A DNA stretch of 48,776 nucleotides from an uncultured Clostridia bacterium (GCA_944384425.1 CALWTI010000003.1:1-48776), one strand, 5' to 3'. Positions 40,688 through 48,776 are shown, counted from the first letter of the stretch. Numbers and translations are program-made. Notes: a model not told the origin generated them from the letters alone.

Positions 40688-41290
40688 TTATATTTTTCTA
40701 ATAATAGCAACTACTTTTCCGACAACGCTTATGTTTTTGCCTTCGATTGGTTGATATAAAGGGTTTGCAGGATGCAACGATATCTTGTCTTCGTTTTTAT
40801 AAAAATATTTAACAGTTGCTTTATCTTCAACCATAGCGACGGCAATTTCTCCATTTTCAACGGTGTTTTGAGAATGAACTATTGCCAAATCTCCGTCATT
40901 GATTCCTGCATCAATCATACTGTCGCCTCTTACTTTTAGTGCAAAAAGAAGACTATCATCATAATTTCCGATAAGGGAAGAGGAGATTACGAGTCGTTCT
41001 TCAATATTTTGCTCTGCAAGAATTGGTTGCCCAGCCGCAACTCGCCCGACAACAGGGAAATTCACAGTTGGTATTTCTTGTTTAACTAAATCAATACTTC
41101 TGCTTTTGAATCCAGATTTTTTAATGTAACCAGCGAGTTCAAGTCTATCAAGATATTTTTTTACGGAGTTTATTGATTTTAGATTGACATTTGCCGAAAT
41201 TTCACGATAGGTTGGTGGATATCCAGAATTTTTGGTATATTCTTCAATAAAAGATAATATATCTTGCATTTTTTGTTCTGACTTTTTCAT
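40688..41290 (-). CDS. lexA: LexA repressor
   Basis: N-terminal wHTH (GYPPTYREI); GDSM catalytic Ser motif; C-terminal VVGKVVAIIRK. Confidence 0.93.
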   Translation of the reverse strand: MKKSEQKMQDILSFIEEYTKNSGYPPTYREISANVNLKSINSVKKYLDRLELAGYIKKSGFKSRSIDLVKQEIPTVNFPVVGRVAAGQPILAEQNIEERLVISSSLIGNYDDSLLFALKVRGDSMIDAGINDGDLAIVHSQNTVENGEIAVAMVEDKATVKYFYKNEDKISLHPANPLYQPIEGKNISVVGKVVAIIRKI

Positions 41291-42462: not shown

Positions 42463-43422
42463 ATGAAAAATCAAATTTTTTCTTTTGATAAAGCGTATAT
42501 TGAAACTTTTGCAAGAGGCGTAAGTTATTCATATGTTGAAAATGCTTATAGCATTTTTCTTGATATTTTAGATGAATCAATGCAAGCTATCACGAAATTT
42601 CGACCTGTTGTAACAGACTATAATTGCCAAATAGTAAATGAATGTTTAAACGATGCACAGCTTCAAAATTCAACACTTGATATTTTTATGAATATAAAAT
42701 CTCCACAACTTGAGCTTGGCTTAGTTAAACTAAACAAAAACTATATAAAAAAATGGTTTAACAAGTTAAAATTGGCATGGTCAAGCAATAAAAAACCAAA
42801 GAAAAAAAGATGGTGGCAAAGAAAAAATAAAACAAAAACCGACAAAAATGACGAAATTAAAATAGGCGAGAAATATGATTTTCAGGCATTTAAGAAACAA
42901 TTGATGCTTGAACTAGCAAAAAGATTTACACCAAAAACAACAATATATGTGTCAAGTTATGGTTTGCTTGTTCTTTGTAGCGAAGATTTGGGCATGGACA
43001 TAAATCTTTTTATATGTTTTTCAAATGGTGAAAAATACACTTTATTCAATGAGCTGACAATGAACTTGACTTACATTGAATTTAAAGATAGAGAAAAAAA
43101 TATTCACACAAAAAGATTAAGTACAAATGATAATTTTGTAAAAGCGCTTAGAATTTTCAATGGTTTGTATAGAAATATTTATTCAAAGCCATTAAATCAA
43201 ATTTTGCTAGAAAGTGTTTTGTATAATTGCCCAGATGAATTATTTGAAAACAATGCTTATGATATGTTTATAAAACTTATAAATTTTATAAATGTAAGTG
43301 CTATGCAAACTTTTAAATCAATAACAGATGACGAAACTTCAATAATAAAAAACAATTTAATACCACAAAGCGAAATTTATGATTTTGTGAACTTTTTAAA
43401 GAATTTGGCAAAATTACTATAA
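42463..43422 (+). CDS. Orphan 319-aa protein, possibly a degenerate nucleotidyltransferase fold with a polybasic insertion
   Basis: No SD. TTGACT-18-TATTAT ends 6 nt before the ATG, so the mRNA is possibly leaderless. Carries a KKPKKKRWWQRKNKTK insert. The C-terminal LLESVLYNCPDELF resembles NTase-family helices. Confidence 0.6.
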   Translation: MKNQIFSFDKAYIETFARGVSYSYVENAYSIFLDILDESMQAITKFRPVVTDYNCQIVNECLNDAQLQNSTLDIFMNIKSPQLELGLVKLNKNYIKKWFNKLKLAWSSNKKPKKKRWWQRKNKTKTDKNDEIKIGEKYDFQAFKKQLMLELAKRFTPKTTIYVSSYGLLVLCSEDLGMDINLFICFSNGEKYTLFNELTMNLTYIEFKDREKNIHTKRLSTNDNFVKALRIFNGLYRNIYSKPLNQILLESVLYNCPDELFENNAYDMFIKLINFINVSAMQTFKSITDDETSIIKNNLIPQSEIYDFVNFLKNLAKLL

Positions 43423-43445
43423 TTTTCGCCTATTCTATGCCTTAT

Positions 43446-43473
43446 TATTCGCAAAAGCTGTCTTTTGTGAATA
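43446..43473. promoter_or_regulatory. dif-like 11-6-11 recombination site, left prophage junction
   Basis: TATTCGCAAAA-GCTGTC-TTTTGTGAATA; arms are 10/11 inverted repeats; identity with the copy at 48684 begins within the spacer. Confidence 0.6.
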
Positions 43474-43538
43474 TTTAAACATCTTTGACTGTATCAATGT
43501 AGTTTTCGAGCACTATTCTCATCAAATCGCTTGTTTTT
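43462..43538. repeat. Direct repeat, left copy (identical to 48700-48776)
   Basis: 77/77 identity at an offset of exactly 5,238 bp; the right copy is cut by the window end. Confidence 0.95.
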
Positions 43539-43618
43539 CTACGTTTTTCGCTTGCTAGTTGCTTGAAATTGTCTATTGTTTCTTGTTTTAGTCTAATACC
43601 ACAAAATACTTTTTGCAT
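43475..43618 (-). CDS. Ribbon-helix-helix (CopG/Arc-like) DNA-binding protein, 47 aa
   Basis: MQKVFCGIRLKQETIDNFKQLASEKRRKTSDLMRIVLENYIDTVKDV. Strand-helix-helix pattern; aaggagg SD 7 nt upstream; below the ORF-track cutoff. Confidence 0.75.
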   Translation of the reverse strand: MQKVFCGIRLKQETIDNFKQLASEKRRKTSDLMRIVLENYIDTVKDV

Positions 43619-43657
43619 TTATATACCTCCTTTTAATTAAATTTATTTGTTTAATTT

Positions 43658-43692
43658 TGTTAAACATTTTAACTATATATCATTGTTTAACA
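43658..43692. promoter_or_regulatory. Two TGTTWAACA palindromes in the RHH promoter region
   Basis: tgttaaaca at 43658-66 (inside GTTAAAcatTTTAAC) and tgtttaaca at 43684-92; a third copy lies at 48673-81. Confidence 0.5.
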
Positions 43693-43906
43693 TTTTGCCA
43701 ACAGTTTTTTCAAAAAATTTTGTTTGTTGCTCCCCTGCCCTACCCTAATAGTATAGCGCTTGCGCGTGGGGTATGGGGTTATTGACCCCATTAAAGCCCC
43801 AAATAACGCATTTTTAGAGCCTAGAACGAACGAAACGAACGCGGACGAGTAGTTATATACCCTCAACACTCTTTCGTGTGTTTATGAGCCTAAAAAAAGG
43901 CAAAGC

Positions 43907-44956
43907 TTAGTTTTTTCGCTTCGCCTTTTTAATTCTCTCACGTATGATATCCTCTTTTTGCATTAAATATTGCTTTTCTGTCAAGCTTGTGTTTTTTAAC
44001 ACCTTTTCTCTGTTCCATTTTGCCATAAATTTGCGCTGTTCTTTTATCTCTTCGATTTTCTCTGGGTTTTCTAGTTCGTATAACAAATCAAAATATCTTG
44101 GTGGCTTCGCTGATCTTACATTGCCCTTTCCGTCAGATAAGAAAATTTCGTCACTTTCATATATCAAGTCTTTGTTTTTTTCAAAGTAATTTTTGCCAAT
44201 GCCCGGCTTTCTTGACATTCTGACGAATTCAGGCACAAGCCCTTGCTTTTTATACCACTCTGCATCAATTCCCTGTTGTTTCTTCATAACATATCTAGCA
44301 GTATATGCGCAAGTTTCCCAACTTAACTTGCCAATAGATATTATGCCATTGCCCCAAAGTTCTTCTATGGCTTTAGATGTAAATATCTGGTCTTCTTGAA
44401 AATTCTTAAACATTGGTTTTTTGTCTGGAATAGGCATGTTGAATATCAACGCGTGATAGTGTGGCCTTTTTGTTTTGTCGCCATACTCTCCACATGCATA
44501 AAATCTTATGCCTGGGTTTGTATCTGTCTTTTTCCATCCGTATGTATACTCCCAATGCCGTCGCAACCGTTTAAAAAAGTTTTGCAAGTCCTTGGGCTGT
44601 AAAGTTCCCTTTATTGACTTTTCCCCGGTTTCTTTGTCAACATGTTCGACAGTGTGCAGATGTGCATCATCATAAGTGAGAGTTACAAAGTAATTTTCTT
44701 TCCACTGTTTAGCTTCTAGCATACATCTGTTGGCCCACGTCTTGGCATAGTCCATCCGACATCCAAGGCACTTACCACAAGGAACTTTAACTACTCTTTT
44801 TTCGAGCCAATCGTCAGTGATTTTTTCTCCGTAATAGTATTCTGCAACTATTAGCTCTGATGCTATTTTGCTTTCCGTTGTTATTATTAGCTTTTTCTTG
44901 CCACTTGGAAGAGTTAGCCCGGTATCACGCATAAGTAATGGATGAAAGCATGTCAC
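43907..44956 (-). CDS. Microviridae replication initiation protein (VP4/A-like, HUH)
   Basis: CGKCLGCR, YFVTLTYD, RPHYHALIF (HUH) and YTARYVMKK motifs; GTG start after ggagg. Confidence 0.92.
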   Translation of the reverse strand: MTCFHPLLMRDTGLTLPSGKKKLIITTESKIASELIVAEYYYGEKITDDWLEKRVVKVPCGKCLGCRMDYAKTWANRCMLEAKQWKENYFVTLTYDDAHLHTVEHVDKETGEKSIKGTLQPKDLQNFFKRLRRHWEYTYGWKKTDTNPGIRFYACGEYGDKTKRPHYHALIFNMPIPDKKPMFKNFQEDQIFTSKAIEELWGNGIISIGKLSWETCAYTARYVMKKQQGIDAEWYKKQGLVPEFVRMSRKPGIGKNYFEKNKDLIYESDEIFLSDGKGNVRSAKPPRYFDLLYELENPEKIEEIKEQRKFMAKWNREKVLKNTSLTEKQYLMQKEDIIRERIKKAKRKN

Positions 44957-44985
44957 GTTTTCCTCCTTTTAAGATTAATCAAAAT

Positions 44986-45049
44986 GTCGACGTGATCGTC
45001 GACGTTGAGCTCAGCACAAATACTATTACTTGATTATATTTGTGCTGAG
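44986..45049. other. Two perfect hairpins in the VP2-VP4 intergenic region
   Basis: gtcgacg-tgat-cgtcgac (44986-45003); ctcagcacaaata-14 nt-tatttgtgctgag (45010-45049). Confidence 0.8.
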
Positions 45050-45063
45050 TGACACAAAATTGC

Positions 45064-45507
45064 TTATTTTAGCAATTTTAACAAACTGATTGCTGTGTTT
45101 ACAATGCTTGTTGGACTGTCTTGTTTTTTGCCGTTTGTGCTTGCAATACTTTTGACAAGTCCCGCGGCTGCATTAATGTTGTTAGCAAGTGATGCGCCAT
45201 GATTATTATTATTAGTGAATGCATTATTTCCACTTGCTGCCATTCCTGTTGGTGTGCTTGCGCCACCCTGTTGGAAGGCAAGCGCCGGGTTAAGCCCGGC
45301 CGCTTCCATGTCTTTAATTGCCCGTTGATATGATGTGTTGCTCATGTATTCTTCCCACTGTCTTTGTTTAAGCGCTTCTTGTGCGTTGAATTGGCGTGTT
45401 ATTTCTGCTTGTTCGGCATTGTACTGCCTTTCTTTTGCTGCTGTTCCAAAGCCTAGCCAATCCTTTATGTTTTCCCACGTACCTTGATTTTGATAGTTAA
45501 ACTCCAT
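45064..45507 (-). CDS. Microviridae DNA pilot/minor capsid protein (VP2-like, short)
   Basis: NTSYQRAIKDMEAAGLNPALAF motif typical of VP2; G/A/N-rich C-terminal half. Confidence 0.85.
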   Translation of the reverse strand: MEFNYQNQGTWENIKDWLGFGTAAKERQYNAEQAEITRQFNAQEALKQRQWEEYMSNTSYQRAIKDMEAAGLNPALAFQQGGASTPTGMAASGNNAFTNNNNHGASLANNINAAAGLVKSIASTNGKKQDSPTSIVNTAISLLKLLK

Positions 45508-45517
45508 AAATCACCTC

Positions 45518-47290
45518 TTAATTATGGTCAATTAGTCCTGGGATGCTGTACATTGGCATTGGCCTTGCTGCTTTTATTGAAAAGTAGAAGTCGCATGTAA
45601 ATTGGTCACTTACTGTACTTTGTACTGCCAATGTTTGGTCAATTGCTTCTGTTCCCTCGTCGTTAAATTCTTGGCTTAATGTAGGCAATGTTTCAAATTC
45701 TAGTCCGTAGTGCCAAATATTTCCATTTTTTTCCGCATTACTTCGTAGTTGACCTGTGATCAAGTTTGGGTTATATCTGTATTCTGCCCATGCCTCCTGG
45801 TAGCCGAACACTTCATTGTCTTTATTATTGTCTTCTTCTGTTTTTTGACTTCCTGCTTGAGTTATGTAAAGTTCTTTGTTTAATATAGGTTGTTCCCCAA
45901 TGTTTGCTAATGCTGGCCAATAATAGTCAAATCTTCTAGTCCTTGACCAAAGTTTGTTAATGCCTTGTTGGTAACTATTTACAACTCTTACACATGCTAG
46001 TCCAATTATGAACCCGTGCTCAGTGAAAGATTTTGTGAAGCTTCGATTACTCCCGGCAGTGTTTGAAAATGCTGCAGCATTTCCTTGTGGTGAATTTTCT
46101 GTACCTTCGCTTGTTTGTAGGACTTGCATCATGTTTATTGGACAACGTTTTCCGCCCAGGTACTCCGGCCTTTGTTGGCGCGCATCTGCTGACGTTACCC
46201 CGAAATTGCTTTTAATAATTTCGATATATCTAGTTCCTCCGCGCGCATCTTTTTCGAGTTGTCTTTGTACAGCAAAGGCAAGACGTATGTCATTTATGTT
46301 AATTGCTGTTGCATTTGTTAGGTCGGCTATCATACCGCTTAGATTTGGATCTGTTGTTAGTCCCATTATTGTTGGATTTGATGGCGCTGCGTTTACTGAT
46401 GTTATTTTATCTCCTGTGTTCTTTCTAGTTTCTTCGCTTGATGCATATAATCCTGTTATGCCGTTTTTGGCTGGCTCTGTTACTCCTTCTAGTATATTAT
46501 TTGTTGTTGCAGTTGCTGCTACTAAGTTCCATGTGTAGTCATTTACAGTTGATGCCCCTGGTGCTTCAAGTCCTATTGCTGTCCCATTTCCTATTACGGG
46601 AGCACTGTCTCCAAGTGGTATTGTTATTGGGCTACCTTTTTGTGGTTCAGGCAGTGCACTTGTAAAGTAGTCGTGTAATTTTGCCACCTTCAAACATTTT
46701 GTAGTTCCTGCTTGTACATATTTCGCTGTAGGGAATGCTATTATGTTGCCATCCACATTTTTTTGCACGTCTAGTGGTGCAATTATATTTTGGTTTCTGA
46801 ACCATTCATTGTAGATTAGTACATATCCTCTGAATGGTAGAGCGTTAACTCCTTTTTCTGGTCTTGTAATGTTTTGTAATCCTATGCACTTTTTTGTTGG
46901 AATTCCCATGTGGTCGCCGATGCTACCCGGTTCATATGTTGTTATTATTGTTGGTATCTGATATTCTGTCTCTTCTTCGTCCCATTCTCCCGTTTTATTT
47001 TCGCCCATAAATTCTGGCCAATGGTCCCAAACTAATCTGTTTGGTACAAAGAAATAATATAGGTCCAAGTATGCTGTATCCATAACCGGTTTTAATGGCG
47101 TATTCATACGAATAACATATCCGGTATCAATGTTGAATGTGTCCCCCGGTAATATTTCTTGTACGAGAATTGGGACTAATTCACCCTCATTAAAAGTTGT
47201 TTTGTGACCGTGACTTAGGTCGAATATGCTTCTTTTTATGTCCACATTTGGTAGTTTGCTAAAATGTAGTTCTGTGTTTCTATTCGCCAT
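45518..47290 (-). CDS. Microviridae major capsid protein (VP1/F)
   Basis: FSKLPNVDIKRSIFDLSHGHKTTFNEGELVPILVQEILPGDTF N-terminus; 590 aa; aggagg SD. Confidence 0.93.
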   Translation of the reverse strand: MANRNTELHFSKLPNVDIKRSIFDLSHGHKTTFNEGELVPILVQEILPGDTFNIDTGYVIRMNTPLKPVMDTAYLDLYYFFVPNRLVWDHWPEFMGENKTGEWDEEETEYQIPTIITTYEPGSIGDHMGIPTKKCIGLQNITRPEKGVNALPFRGYVLIYNEWFRNQNIIAPLDVQKNVDGNIIAFPTAKYVQAGTTKCLKVAKLHDYFTSALPEPQKGSPITIPLGDSAPVIGNGTAIGLEAPGASTVNDYTWNLVAATATTNNILEGVTEPAKNGITGLYASSEETRKNTGDKITSVNAAPSNPTIMGLTTDPNLSGMIADLTNATAININDIRLAFAVQRQLEKDARGGTRYIEIIKSNFGVTSADARQQRPEYLGGKRCPINMMQVLQTSEGTENSPQGNAAAFSNTAGSNRSFTKSFTEHGFIIGLACVRVVNSYQQGINKLWSRTRRFDYYWPALANIGEQPILNKELYITQAGSQKTEEDNNKDNEVFGYQEAWAEYRYNPNLITGQLRSNAEKNGNIWHYGLEFETLPTLSQEFNDEGTEAIDQTLAVQSTVSDQFTCDFYFSIKAARPMPMYSIPGLIDHN

Positions 47291-47717
47291 CTTTTACCTC
47301 CTGTTGTTTTGGTTGTTCGATTTTATAAGCTTTTAAAATATCTTGCTGAGTTATTTGCTCCCCGCTTATTATTTTTTCTTTTAGTTCTTCTGGCATAGCC
47401 TGGTATTTTTGCCCGGCATTTTGCGCCATTGCGTTTAGGTCATTAATGTTATTTGGTGTTATGGTGCTGTCACCGTAGTTAAGTGCTGGTTTTTTGTAGA
47501 GTACTCCCAAATCTCCATTTTTGAAGCGTTCAAGGATGTTGTATATCATTGTGTCTTCTTTGCCCTCTTGAATTTTGGCGTAAACGTTAACTTTGCCGGT
47601 TTCTTTGTAGTCAATTGACCCATCTTTGTTGGTTATGCGTTTAATTATTCTTCTAAATCCGTCTCCTGTTGCCCCTTTGCCTTGTTTTGGCGGATTTTGC
47701 ATTGTTAGAAATTTCAT
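47280..47717 (-). CDS. Microviridae internal scaffolding protein (VP3-like)
   Basis: Position upstream of and overlapping VP1; EDTMIYNILERFKNGD resembles the VP3 DINxIxxxFxKTG segment. Confidence 0.7.
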   Translation of the reverse strand: MKFLTMQNPPKQGKGATGDGFRRIIKRITNKDGSIDYKETGKVNVYAKIQEGKEDTMIYNILERFKNGDLGVLYKKPALNYGDSTITPNNINDLNAMAQNAGQKYQAMPEELKEKIISGEQITQQDILKAYKIEQPKQQEVKDGE

Positions 47718-47738
47718 GTTACTCTCCTTTTAAATTTC

Positions 47739-47858
47739 CTATAAATAAGCTCTTTCTATTGATTGTAGTATTCTGATTGCTTCAAGTGGTTTTATTTTGT
47801 TTTTAAATAGAATTTTTGTAATTTCTTCTATAATTTCAACTGCTTTTTTTTTATCCAT
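47739..47858 (-). CDS. Small phage ORF (39 aa), not in ORF track
   Basis: MDKKKAVEIIEEITKILFKNKIKPLEAIRILQSIERAYL; ATG directly follows the upstream stop; ggtgag SD. Confidence 0.5.
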   Translation of the reverse strand: MDKKKAVEIIEEITKILFKNKIKPLEAIRILQSIERAYL

Positions 47859-48116
47859 TTACTCACCTTCTTTTATAATAAAGTCATTTGCTTTAGCAAT
47901 ATATTTTGGTTGGGTTGCTGTAATCTCTCCTGTCTGGTCGTTGTACTCGCCCATTGTCCACAGCTCTTTGTCGTCTGGATAAGTGTTGACTTGGTTTGGC
48001 TGTTGTGCTTGTGCCATTCCGCTAAATGCTCTTACTGCTACCGCGTCATTTTGCATCACAAAAGGTGCTGTAAATCCTATTTTTGTATCTTTTATTGCAT
48101 ATATTTTACTTATCAT
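47859..48116 (-). CDS. Conserved-looking small microvirus protein (85 aa; VP5-like?)
   Basis: IYAIKDTKIGFTAPFVMQNDAVAVRAF N-terminus resembles small gokushovirus-type proteins; gaggag SD. Confidence 0.7.
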   Translation of the reverse strand: MISKIYAIKDTKIGFTAPFVMQNDAVAVRAFSGMAQAQQPNQVNTYPDDKELWTMGEYNDQTGEITATQPKYIAKANDFIIKEGE

Positions 48117-48226
48117 TTTTTTATCTCCTCTATTTTTGTTTGATTTTTTAAAATGCCCTTTGGGTCTTTTTTCTTTAATATTTTTGGCTTGTAAATTTCT
48201 TCAAGCCATTTTTGAATTTTATTCAT
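48113..48226 (-). CDS. Small basic phage ORF (37 aa), not in ORF track
   Basis: MNKIQKWLEEIYKPKILKKKDPKGILKNQTKIEEIKK; ATGA overlap with the next gene; weak SD. Confidence 0.4.
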   Translation of the reverse strand: MNKIQKWLEEIYKPKILKKKDPKGILKNQTKIEEIKK

Positions 48227-48326
48227 TTTTTAATCTCTAGTTATAGTCTTATGCCTCCCCTGTTAATATTAGGGTCAACATTGACTTTTTTTGTTTTGCG
48301 TGCTGTTCTTGAAAAAATTTCGCTAT

Positions 48327-48638
48327 CTATTCGTTTTCTTGTTTTACTGCGCATCTTTCAATCTCCTTTTTTAAGTTTTTTTGAACTGATTTTGTTATGT
48401 ACGTTCCTAGGTCGTCTTTTATTGCGTCTAGTACGAAATTAGTTATTCTTGTTGTACTTGCTGATGTTCCTAGCAAGTTCTTTGCTTGTTTAATGTAAGT
48501 AGGCAATGTCTTTGCTATGTTTGCTACTGTTTCAAGTGTGTTTTTGTTTTTTAGTTTTATCATAATAATTAAGTATACAAACATACTAAGTGCGTTAATA
48601 GCGACTGTCCCTATACTTACCCAATTTTCAATACTCAT
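48327..48638 (-). CDS. Phage single-TM membrane protein (103 aa)
   Basis: Strong aggagg SD; N-terminal TM IGTVAINALSMFVYLIIMI; first gene after the att site. Confidence 0.75.
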   Translation of the reverse strand: MSIENWVSIGTVAINALSMFVYLIIMIKLKNKNTLETVANIAKTLPTYIKQAKNLLGTSASTTRITNFVLDAIKDDLGTYITKSVQKNLKKEIERCAVKQENE

Positions 48639-48683
48639 ATTACCTCCTTTTTTGTTAAATATTGAATAACATTGTTAAACAAA

Positions 48684-48711
48684 TATTTTAAAAAGTTGCC
48701 TTTTGTGAATA
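48684..48711. promoter_or_regulatory. dif-like 11-6-11 site, second copy (attP-like or attR)
   Basis: TATTTTAAAAA-GTTGCC-TTTTGTGAATA. Right arm is identical to the 43446 site; left arm matches 8/11; spacer differs at 2 of 6 positions. Confidence 0.55.
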
Positions 48712-48776
48712 TTTAAACATCTTTGACTGTATCAATGTAGTTTTCGAGCACTATTCTCATCAAATCGCTTGTTTTT
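48700..48776. repeat. Direct repeat, right copy (identical to 43462-43538), truncated by the window end
   Basis: Covers the 3' 62 nt of an RHH-gene copy plus 15 nt downstream. Confidence 0.95.

Follow-up and report, generated by a model that had tools for sequence, protein, structure and literature searches.

The stretch of DNA analysed here, a single whole contig of 48,776 nt (the window), very probably represents the region around the chromosome terminus in an uncultured Christensenellales-type Clostridia bacterium from the chicken gut, where a single-stranded-DNA phage, a gokushovirus-like microvirus, has integrated at the host dif site. Four attachment sites (attB, attP, attL, and attR) were recovered from public assemblies and reads, and their comparison places a reciprocal exchange between a terminal palindrome of the host and its mimic on the phage, with the junction at the spacer boundary beside the good phage arm.

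Two dif-like sites with an 11-6-11 arrangement of arm, spacer, and arm lie in the window (Table 1). A sequence-only reading of the same DNA had taken them for tyrosine-recombinase targets with the crossover at the point where the two copies start to agree, and the comparison of all four att sites supports this core of it. Its two 28-nt sequences and their coordinates are exact, and a recount of its figures agrees: the arms at 43446-43473 are 10/11 inverted repeats, the left arms match at 8/11 positions between the copies, the spacers differ at 2 of 6 positions (positions 2 and 5), and rightward the copies are identical, exactly so from 43462 and 48700 over 77 nt to the window end. Since 11-6-11 inverted repeats with at least 10/11 matches are not rare in the window (seven against about 1.4 expected), the case rests on comparison with the empty site, attP, attR, and the equivalent sites of other species.

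Table 1. Coordinates of the att sites, the microvirus genes, and the neighbouring host genes in the window.
Feature	Position	Strand	Basis or remark
lexA	40688..41290	-	TIGR00498, 204 bits against a cutoff of 111; neighbour of xer
XerS-like tyrosine recombinase, 341 aa	41359..42384	-	Pfam Phage_integrase 1.6e-34; proposed catalyst
319-aa gene between xer and dif	42463-43422	+	Weak matches to CD-NTase C-terminal domain, anti-phage nucleotidyltransferase (E ~3e-4, far below cutoff)
attL, hybrid dif	43446..43473		TATTCGCAAAA-GCTGTC-TTTTGTGAATA; by comparison with attB of L001/L002 and attP of L003
Crossover interval C-TTTTG	43462..43467		Common to attB and attP, across the spacer/right-arm boundary
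Complete gokushovirus-like microvirus unit, 5,238 bp	43462..48699	- (all genes)	100% identical to L003
RHH/Arc-like protein, 47 aa	43475..43618	-	PHROG 3180 Arc-like repressor E 4.5e-4; RelB-like E 1.4e-4, below cutoff
Replication initiation protein (VP4-like, HUH Rep)	43907..44956	-	PF23343 3.7e-19; PHROG 942 1.3e-114
DNA pilot protein (VP2-like)	45064..45507	-	PHROG 27063 2.5e-29
Major capsid protein VP1 (F protein)	45518..47290	-	PF02305 7e-154; PHROG 514 1.4e-205
Internal scaffolding protein (VP3-like)	47280..47717	-	PF09675 Chlamy_scaf 1.1e-15
VP5-like DNA-binding protein	47859..48116	-	PHROG 1670 6e-24; Phage_ORF5 on the identical gene in L164
103-aa protein, first gene downstream of attP	48327..48638	-	No Pfam or PHROG match
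attP, the phage's own dif-like site	48684..48711		TATTTTAAAAA-GTTGCC-TTTTGTGAATA; same as the circle junction of L003
Second pass over the phage genome start	48700..48776		Exact 77-nt repeat of 43462-43538; contig stops there

A look-up of the 319-aa host protein led to phage-free contigs from other samples (L001 and L002). The equivalent point in them is occupied by attB, a perfect palindrome, TATTCGCAAAA-GCTGTC-TTTTGCGAATA; their host flank matches the window at 98.07% identity and is colinear exactly to the end of attB, beyond which the DNA is unlike the window, from a YgjP-like gene onward. The empty-site comparison that the sequence-only reading had proposed thus puts the junction at 43446-43473 and nowhere else. 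Looking up the 103-aa phage protein returned the Logan contig L003, whose 5,268 nt with a 30-nt terminal overlap form a closed circle of 5,238 nt that is 100% identical to the window phage. The junction of this circle is the second site of the window, attP, an in silico equivalent of the proposed PCR across attP in circular forms.

Because attB stands in phage-free hosts and attP in the circle, the site at 43446-43473 is attL: the host left arm (43446-43456) and host spacer (43457-43462) are followed by a phage right arm (43463-43473) that departs from the host arm by a single change, T43468 (C in the host). Because attP is the junction of the L003 circle, the site at 48684-48711 is the phage's own attP and not the far prophage junction; it combines a degenerate left arm (8/11 to the host), the spacer GTTGCC, and a good right arm (10/11 to the host). 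The earlier description of this second site as dif-like stands, with the correction that it is a circular or tandem junction rather than the other prophage end; attR lies off the window. The contig runs from the host through attL, once round the phage, and into attP, and the phage repeat runs off the contig end after the exact 77 nt. This stop probably marks where a de Bruijn-graph assembler met the repeat; 77 nt is a usual k-mer size in such assemblers.

The sites were also assembled from public chicken-gut runs: attL independently in X1, X3, and X4, which come from two studies, the phage circle in X2, taken from the same sample as X1, and attB in X5. No attB contig was seen in X1, X3, or X4. 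Alignment of reads to the related contig L004 at 88% likeness yielded attR as a 331-nt X1 contig that links the phage left-arm side to the host right flank. This contig has one mismatch to attP over 48676-48711 and differs from the attB of L004 at 20 letters, of which 18 are placed outside the site and the remaining two equal the number of spacer differences. attR would accordingly read TATTTTAAAAA-GTTGCC-TTTTGCGAATA, its spacer being deduced from the mismatch counts rather than letter by letter. Across attB, attP, attL, and attR, the last host-specific base is 43461 and the first phage-specific base is 43468, and the 6 nt common to attB and attP confine the crossover to 43462-43467. Sequencing depth in the X1/X2 sample was 14.7-18.5 for the phage and 3-5 for the host (5 for the attR contig), a ratio of 4-5 which indicates that circular or tandem copies coexist with the prophage.

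Two further observations concern these sites. Run X2 contains a 151-nt contig, falling on L004:3432-3464, with a dif-like site two mismatches away from attB, whose flanking DNA is unrelated on either side; a sister species may have this site as its dif, or another element may carry it as attP. Promoter-like -35 (TTCACA, within the good arm) and -10 elements on the minus strand overlap attL (43444-43471) and attP (48682-48709) and point to the 103-aa gene, at a level near chance in AT-rich DNA, and no claim is drawn from them.

The phage carries the complete gokushovirus-like Microviridae gene set, VP1 to VP5, on its 5,238-bp circle. No integrase or recombinase was found in Pfam or PHROGs among the phage ORFs scanned, drawn from all those of at least 35 aa, and the ORFs left without assignment, two of 37 aa and one of 60 aa, are too small for a recombinase. 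For the 103-aa protein, only weak tblastn matches came from the genes at the equivalent position in two diverged prophages (L165 and L166). The RHH gene ends with its stop codon 1 nt from the right arm of attL, and its homologue in the L166 phage gives weak RHH_1 matches; adjoining attP as it does, it is a candidate lysogeny regulator, on a weak assignment (E ~1e-4). A G+C-rich island with a hairpin (GGGGTATGGGGTTATTGACCCCAT..., DNA fold z ~-2.3) lies between Rep and the RHH gene at 43735-43800 and could be a replication origin or complementary-strand origin. GenBank phage records hold no close relative, the best match reaching ~65% nucleotide identity over the capsid gene only. A scan of IMG/VR with the single VP1 protein gave no match, and a profile scan recovered 80 microvirus contigs (43-52% identity); the dif-like motif was absent from all of them, a result that is uninformative on attP.

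The rest of the window is host DNA. From 1 to 39 kb it is ordinary chromosome with ScpA/B, PBP5, Cmk, S1, and other genes, and the 5.2-kb microvirus is the sole phage. A large prophage across this region, considered because all its genes lie on one strand, was rejected in view of the host genes ScpA/B, PBP5, Cmk, and S1; the bias in strand is related to replication. At the contig start, ahead of the first long ORF, positions 222-670 hold a degenerate, A-rich array of 10-, 20-, and 40-nt repeats (AACAAAATAA-like). On the host side, left of the att site, are an SDR gene, a tRNA-Thr gene, lexA, the gene for a 341-aa tyrosine recombinase (hereafter xer), and the 319-aa gene, whose position is kept in closer relatives (L004-L016 and L021). 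lexA adjoins xer in most related loci.

The position of attB is that of a replication terminus. In L001 the GC skew flips sign at the site, from positive on its left to negative on its right, and genes converge on it. A scan for the recombinase in one genome per species gave 80 loci. All are from metagenome-assembled Clostridia, for the most part under the label Christensenella or Christensenellaceae. Upstream of xer, 52 of the 80 have a palindrome of at least 10/11 matches with an AAAA-N6-TTTT core; the other 28, several with short flanks, had no site by this definition. The skew is positive left and negative right of the site in 34 of the 43 loci with enough flank. The comparison with related genomes that had been proposed for predicted dif sites, done here by palindrome position and skew, thus finds the same type of palindrome beside xer and a change of skew sign there. 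The distance from site to xer is 1,061 bp in the window (the site lying upstream) and usually 64-1,150 bp among related loci, extending to at most 5.2 kb where the locus is rearranged (2.3-5.2 kb in L037, L044, L021, and L080). In two of these (L037:19-46 and L044:2682-2709), the YgjP-like and PadR-like genes stand between xer and dif. Other integrated elements were considered for the interval between xer and site in L037 and L044 and rejected, as it holds the usual YgjP-like and PadR-like host genes in rearranged order; this is a local rearrangement around the terminus in which the site and its gene neighbours are kept.

The arms vary among species (TATTCGCAAAA, TATGCGTAAAA, ATTGCGCAAAA, TCTTCGCAAAA, and ACTTCGTAAAA), with both sides always changing together, and the 6-bp centre is free to vary. 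Changes on both sides are seen at 10 of 17 mirrored positions, and none of 500 shuffles reached the observed covariation score. Sites were chosen as palindromic in their 11-nt arms, so that only the outer flank columns are unbiased; symmetry extends into these columns, which lay outside the site selection, to ~14 nt per arm. A hairpin in DNA or RNA could also show such covarying dyad symmetry. Judged by terminus skew, xer linkage, and arm covariation, the host site behaves as the predicted chromosomal dif. The sequence-only reading had counted 7/11 positions shared with E. coli dif in each arm; the count is right, but it is weak evidence in AT-rich DNA and the likeness is superficial, the core being AAAA-N6-TTTT and the adjoining gene XerS-like, not XerCD.

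The recombinase encoded beside the site has the catalytic residues R193, K217, H287, R290, H313, and Y323. Its best NCBIfam match is XerS (NF003462), aligned over the full length at 190.2 bits, short of the 267-bit cutoff; scores lower than that for XerS, and likewise below their cutoffs, were obtained with XerA, XerC, and XerD (172 bits against 335 for XerC and 160 against 330 for XerD). The top PDB matches are XerA and XerD. The gene is present in phage-free genomes and kept beside the site in related loci, and linkage between xer gene and dif is a hallmark of the single-recombinase systems XerS and XerH (PMC5357621). The perfect dyad symmetry and the symmetric covariation speak for a single protein that binds the two arms. 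The probable catalyst is the adjacent Xer-like protein, which would act alone, on both arms, and the palindromic dif and XerS-like gene likely form the dimer-resolution module of Christensenellales-type Clostridia. No description of a Xer/dif system for this order was found in the literature searched.

A mechanism can be outlined from established tyrosine recombinases and other Xer-exploiting elements (PMC5357621, PMC7062461). The phage, lacking a recombinase of its own, would borrow that of the host, with the neighbouring Xer-like protein binding both arms as a single species. Monomers on the good arms would cleave alongside them and swap one pair of strands, and the resulting Holliday junction would be completed by a second exchange or by replication. 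Recombination of host attB with phage attP left two hybrids. One, attL, holds the host arm, the host spacer, and the good phage arm, a near-intact dif on the xer side; the other, attR, off the window, joins the degenerate phage arm and phage spacer to a host arm and is half-degenerate. In the window, attL keeps 21 of 22 arm positions of dif and the native spacer. The 2/6 spacer difference and the crossover abutting the good arm fit the exchange of one strand pair; full exchange followed by replication of the heteroduplex spacer gives the same junctions half the time, so one event with a known attB cannot establish the single-strand route. Three features of an Xer-exploiting integrative element (IMEX) are present, namely no recombinase of its own, a dif-like attP, and integration at the terminal host site beside xer, and on these the element is classed as an IMEX of the enterogokushovirus type, with probable dependence on Xer.

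The same arrangement recurs in other hosts. A capsid search gave many relatives on long contigs, and of the six looked up, five diverged microvirus prophages (L165; L166-L168; L172; L173; L174), with VP1 52-53% identical to that of the window, lie at the same locus as single copies. They share one orientation, with the Rep/regulator end towards xer, and are contained with both junctions wholly within contigs of 38-229 kb. In each, the xer-proximal site is a perfect palindrome, and the distal site, 4,981-5,377 bp away, has the same first arm (10-11/11), a similar spacer (4-6/6), and a degenerate second arm (5-9/11). Circular relatives closer to the window phage (VP1 91% and 75% identical) have a perfect good arm TATTCGCAAAA, an A/T-rich degenerate arm, and the spacer GGCAAC or its complement, and the attP layout of the window phage is found in the close circular relatives L175-L179. 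Read as GGCAAC, the spacer of the window phage is the dif spacer of the sister host species L006-L008 and not that of the present host.

Several features of these relatives are worth recording in their own right. The orientation of the attP spacer with respect to the arms is reversed in the closest circular relatives (L175:5272-5299, L176:891-918, and L177:4875-4902) compared with L003 and L178 (GTTGCC versus GGCAAC). An HTH_3 (Cro/CI-type) gene lies on the opposite strand at L172:11602-11859, where the other prophages have the RHH gene, so the regulator module beside attP is swapped in this phage. A third site in L173 (12151-12178, TATTCGTAAAA-TCCAAC-ACTTATACAAA), with one good and one degenerate arm, is found on the xer side, 487 bp past the perfect dif; it may be a mini-element or what an element left behind when it was lost. 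A related prophage in a different host (L169:7700-13800, L170, and L171; VP1 52%) sits beside BMC microcompartment genes, not at the xer-lexA locus, and has a gene for a 267-aa tyrosine recombinase directly after Rep; contigs carrying its capsid are mostly 5-10 kb. On the host side of the distal site in L165 (3430-3667), ~37 nt resemble a phage end. In the phage-free L027 (4963-5249), a 73-aa ORF between the YgjP-like gene and dif has 82% nucleotide identity to the terminal ORF of the L165 prophage. The L165 sequence was considered as a contradiction of the integration model and set aside: since L027 without a phage has the same remnant, it is better explained as an old phage end. Both look like what remains beside dif of earlier integrations.

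Could the junction in the window be an artefact of assembly, a free circular microvirus joined to a host contig through palindrome-like sequence with no integration at all? The contig does end after an exact 77-nt repeat, typical of graph assemblers, and the excess of phage over host depth (~4-5x in the same sample) shows that free or extra copies exist. However, the exact identity of attB and attP at the junction is limited to ~6 nt, with scattered matches besides, which is too little to join k-mer graphs, and attL was assembled independently in X1, X3, and X4 and attR in X1, runs in which no attB contig appeared. With five other prophages lying with both junctions inside contigs of 38-229 kb, a chimera is scarcely credible. 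We also judge it very unlikely that the palindrome serves just as a hairpin or terminator, whether of the RHH gene (as the sequence-only reading had allowed) or of the convergent host genes, with the phage entering by another route such as its HUH Rep. attB folds strongly (-11.8 kcal/mol, z -7.2) and lies between convergent genes, and other 11-6-11 palindromes in the window are terminator-like; yet the palindrome is perfect in phage-free hosts that have no RHH gene, no T-run follows it, neither site is called terminator-like, and dozens of species have it linked to xer and to the change of skew. The reciprocal swap of arms around a 6-bp spacer is, moreover, the signature of a tyrosine recombinase and not of HUH nicking.

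The chromosomal dif might instead be recombined by another host pair of the XerC/XerD type encoded elsewhere, with the adjacent XerS-like gene having a different role. The classical 11-6-11 layout with 7/11 positions per arm shared with E. coli dif would suit such a pair, many Bacillota have XerC/XerD (PMC3025954), the adjacent protein scores below the XerS cutoff, and the host genes surveyed were those of the contig. Perfect dyad symmetry with symmetric covariation nevertheless favours one protein, the close gene-site linkage is that of XerS and XerH (PMC5357621), and the core, AAAA-N6-TTTT, is like those of difSL and difH rather than the CATAA-N6-TTATG of XerCD sites, all of which makes a separate pair unlikely. 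As to the second copy, a head-to-tail prophage array in the chromosome, rather than a free circle, deserves appreciable if minor weight. Tandem arrays are known for CTX-type Xer-exploiting elements, the phage to host depth is ~4:1, and the contig passes from phage end through attP to phage start; against this, the closed 5,268-nt circular contig is also expected from free replicative forms or virions, and the five other prophages are single-copy. Short reads cannot separate tandem from free copies, and both may coexist.

Beyond the integration event itself, we propose, with confidence a little short of even, that Christensenellales-type Clostridia resolve chromosome dimers by a single-recombinase Xer system not met with in the literature searched, in which a XerS-like enzyme encoded beside lexA acts on a symmetric ~14-6-14 dif near its own gene, and that a clade of gut gokushoviruses mimics one arm of this site and enters by exchange of a single strand pair. 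Microviruses are among the most abundant viruses of the human and animal gut, and we know of almost no gut microvirus with a known host or lifestyle. The recovery of four att sites and the same arrangement in six host-phage pairs provide firm host links and a testable integration mechanism. If the proposal is true, exploitation of Xer by a phage would be seen for the first time in a Gram-positive system with a single recombinase, and many "orphan" gut microviruses would gain a host. The module could also be used as a marker of the replication terminus in metagenome-assembled genomes of a large, mostly uncultured order, its dif site as a place to seek further integrated elements, and its simple symmetric substrate for asking how a single Xer recombinase orders strand exchanges.

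The closest known parallel is provided by the enterogokushovirus prophages of Escherichia and other Enterobacteria (e.g. EC6098; Kirchberger & Ochman, 2020, PMC7062461), likewise integrase-less gokushovirus-type microviruses of ~4.3-5.3 kb at the chromosomal dif, where integration needs XerC, XerD, and the phage dif motif. In both, one near-canonical and one degenerate dif motif flank the prophage, the phage motif is placed in a short stretch of non-coding DNA, and prophages are found alongside circular forms (PMC7062461). Unlike them, the present phage has a host in a Gram-positive-type Clostridia lineage, a fully palindromic target beside a XerS-like gene instead of XerCD/dif, an RHH (in L172, HTH) regulator beside attP, and a distant VP1. 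In 2020, gokushovirus prophages had been reported from Enterobacteria alone (PMC7062461), and the first from Gram-positive bacteria were merely listed in 2022 (PMC9239249). Integration of temperate gokushoviruses at dif is known; new here are the uncultured Clostridia host and, as far as the literature searched goes, the palindromic dif linked to a XerS-like gene. The Alpavirinae proviruses of Bacteroidetes (Krupovic & Forterre, 2011, PMC3091885) are also gut microvirus proviruses for which Xer/dif-type integration was proposed from sequence, in another phage subfamily and host phylum, whereas attB, attP, attL, and attR were all recovered here. CTX-phi of Vibrio cholerae and GGI-type elements share one conserved and one divergent arm, a crossover beside the conserved arm, non-identical spacers that fit exchange of one strand pair, and possible tandem copies; CTX-phi differs in using a folded single-stranded hairpin of two inverted sites, where attP here is a plain double-strand-type 28-bp site, and in using XerC and XerD, where a single recombinase would act here.

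On the host side, the XerS/difSL system of streptococci and lactococci and XerH/difH of Helicobacter and Campylobacter (PMC5357621, PMC2965235) resemble the present one in their longer recombinase (~355 aa for both XerS and XerH and 341 aa here, against 298 aa for XerC/XerD), in a dif genetically linked to xer at the terminus, and in arms that end in AAAA and begin with TTTT; XerS is also the best family match. difSL and difH are imperfect, asymmetric 31-bp sites with an 11-bp centre, whereas the arms here are perfectly symmetric (11-6-11, or ~14-6-14), xer and dif can have one gene between them, lexA is conserved beside xer, and the score stays below the XerS cutoff (190 versus 267). Classical XerCD/dif is alike in its 28-bp 11-6-11 layout and terminus location, but the arms here are identical, which argues against two different binders (XerC and XerD), and their core is CAAAA/TTTTG in place of CATAA/TTATG. 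Similar reasoning underlies LME-1 and XerL-dif of Legionella (PMC9765430), where an integrated element also pointed to an unrecognised single-recombinase system with an uninterrupted palindromic terminal dif; there, xer lies >400 kb from dif, the element is a large episome and not a microvirus, and the system has been proven by genetics, whereas the one described here is known from sequence.
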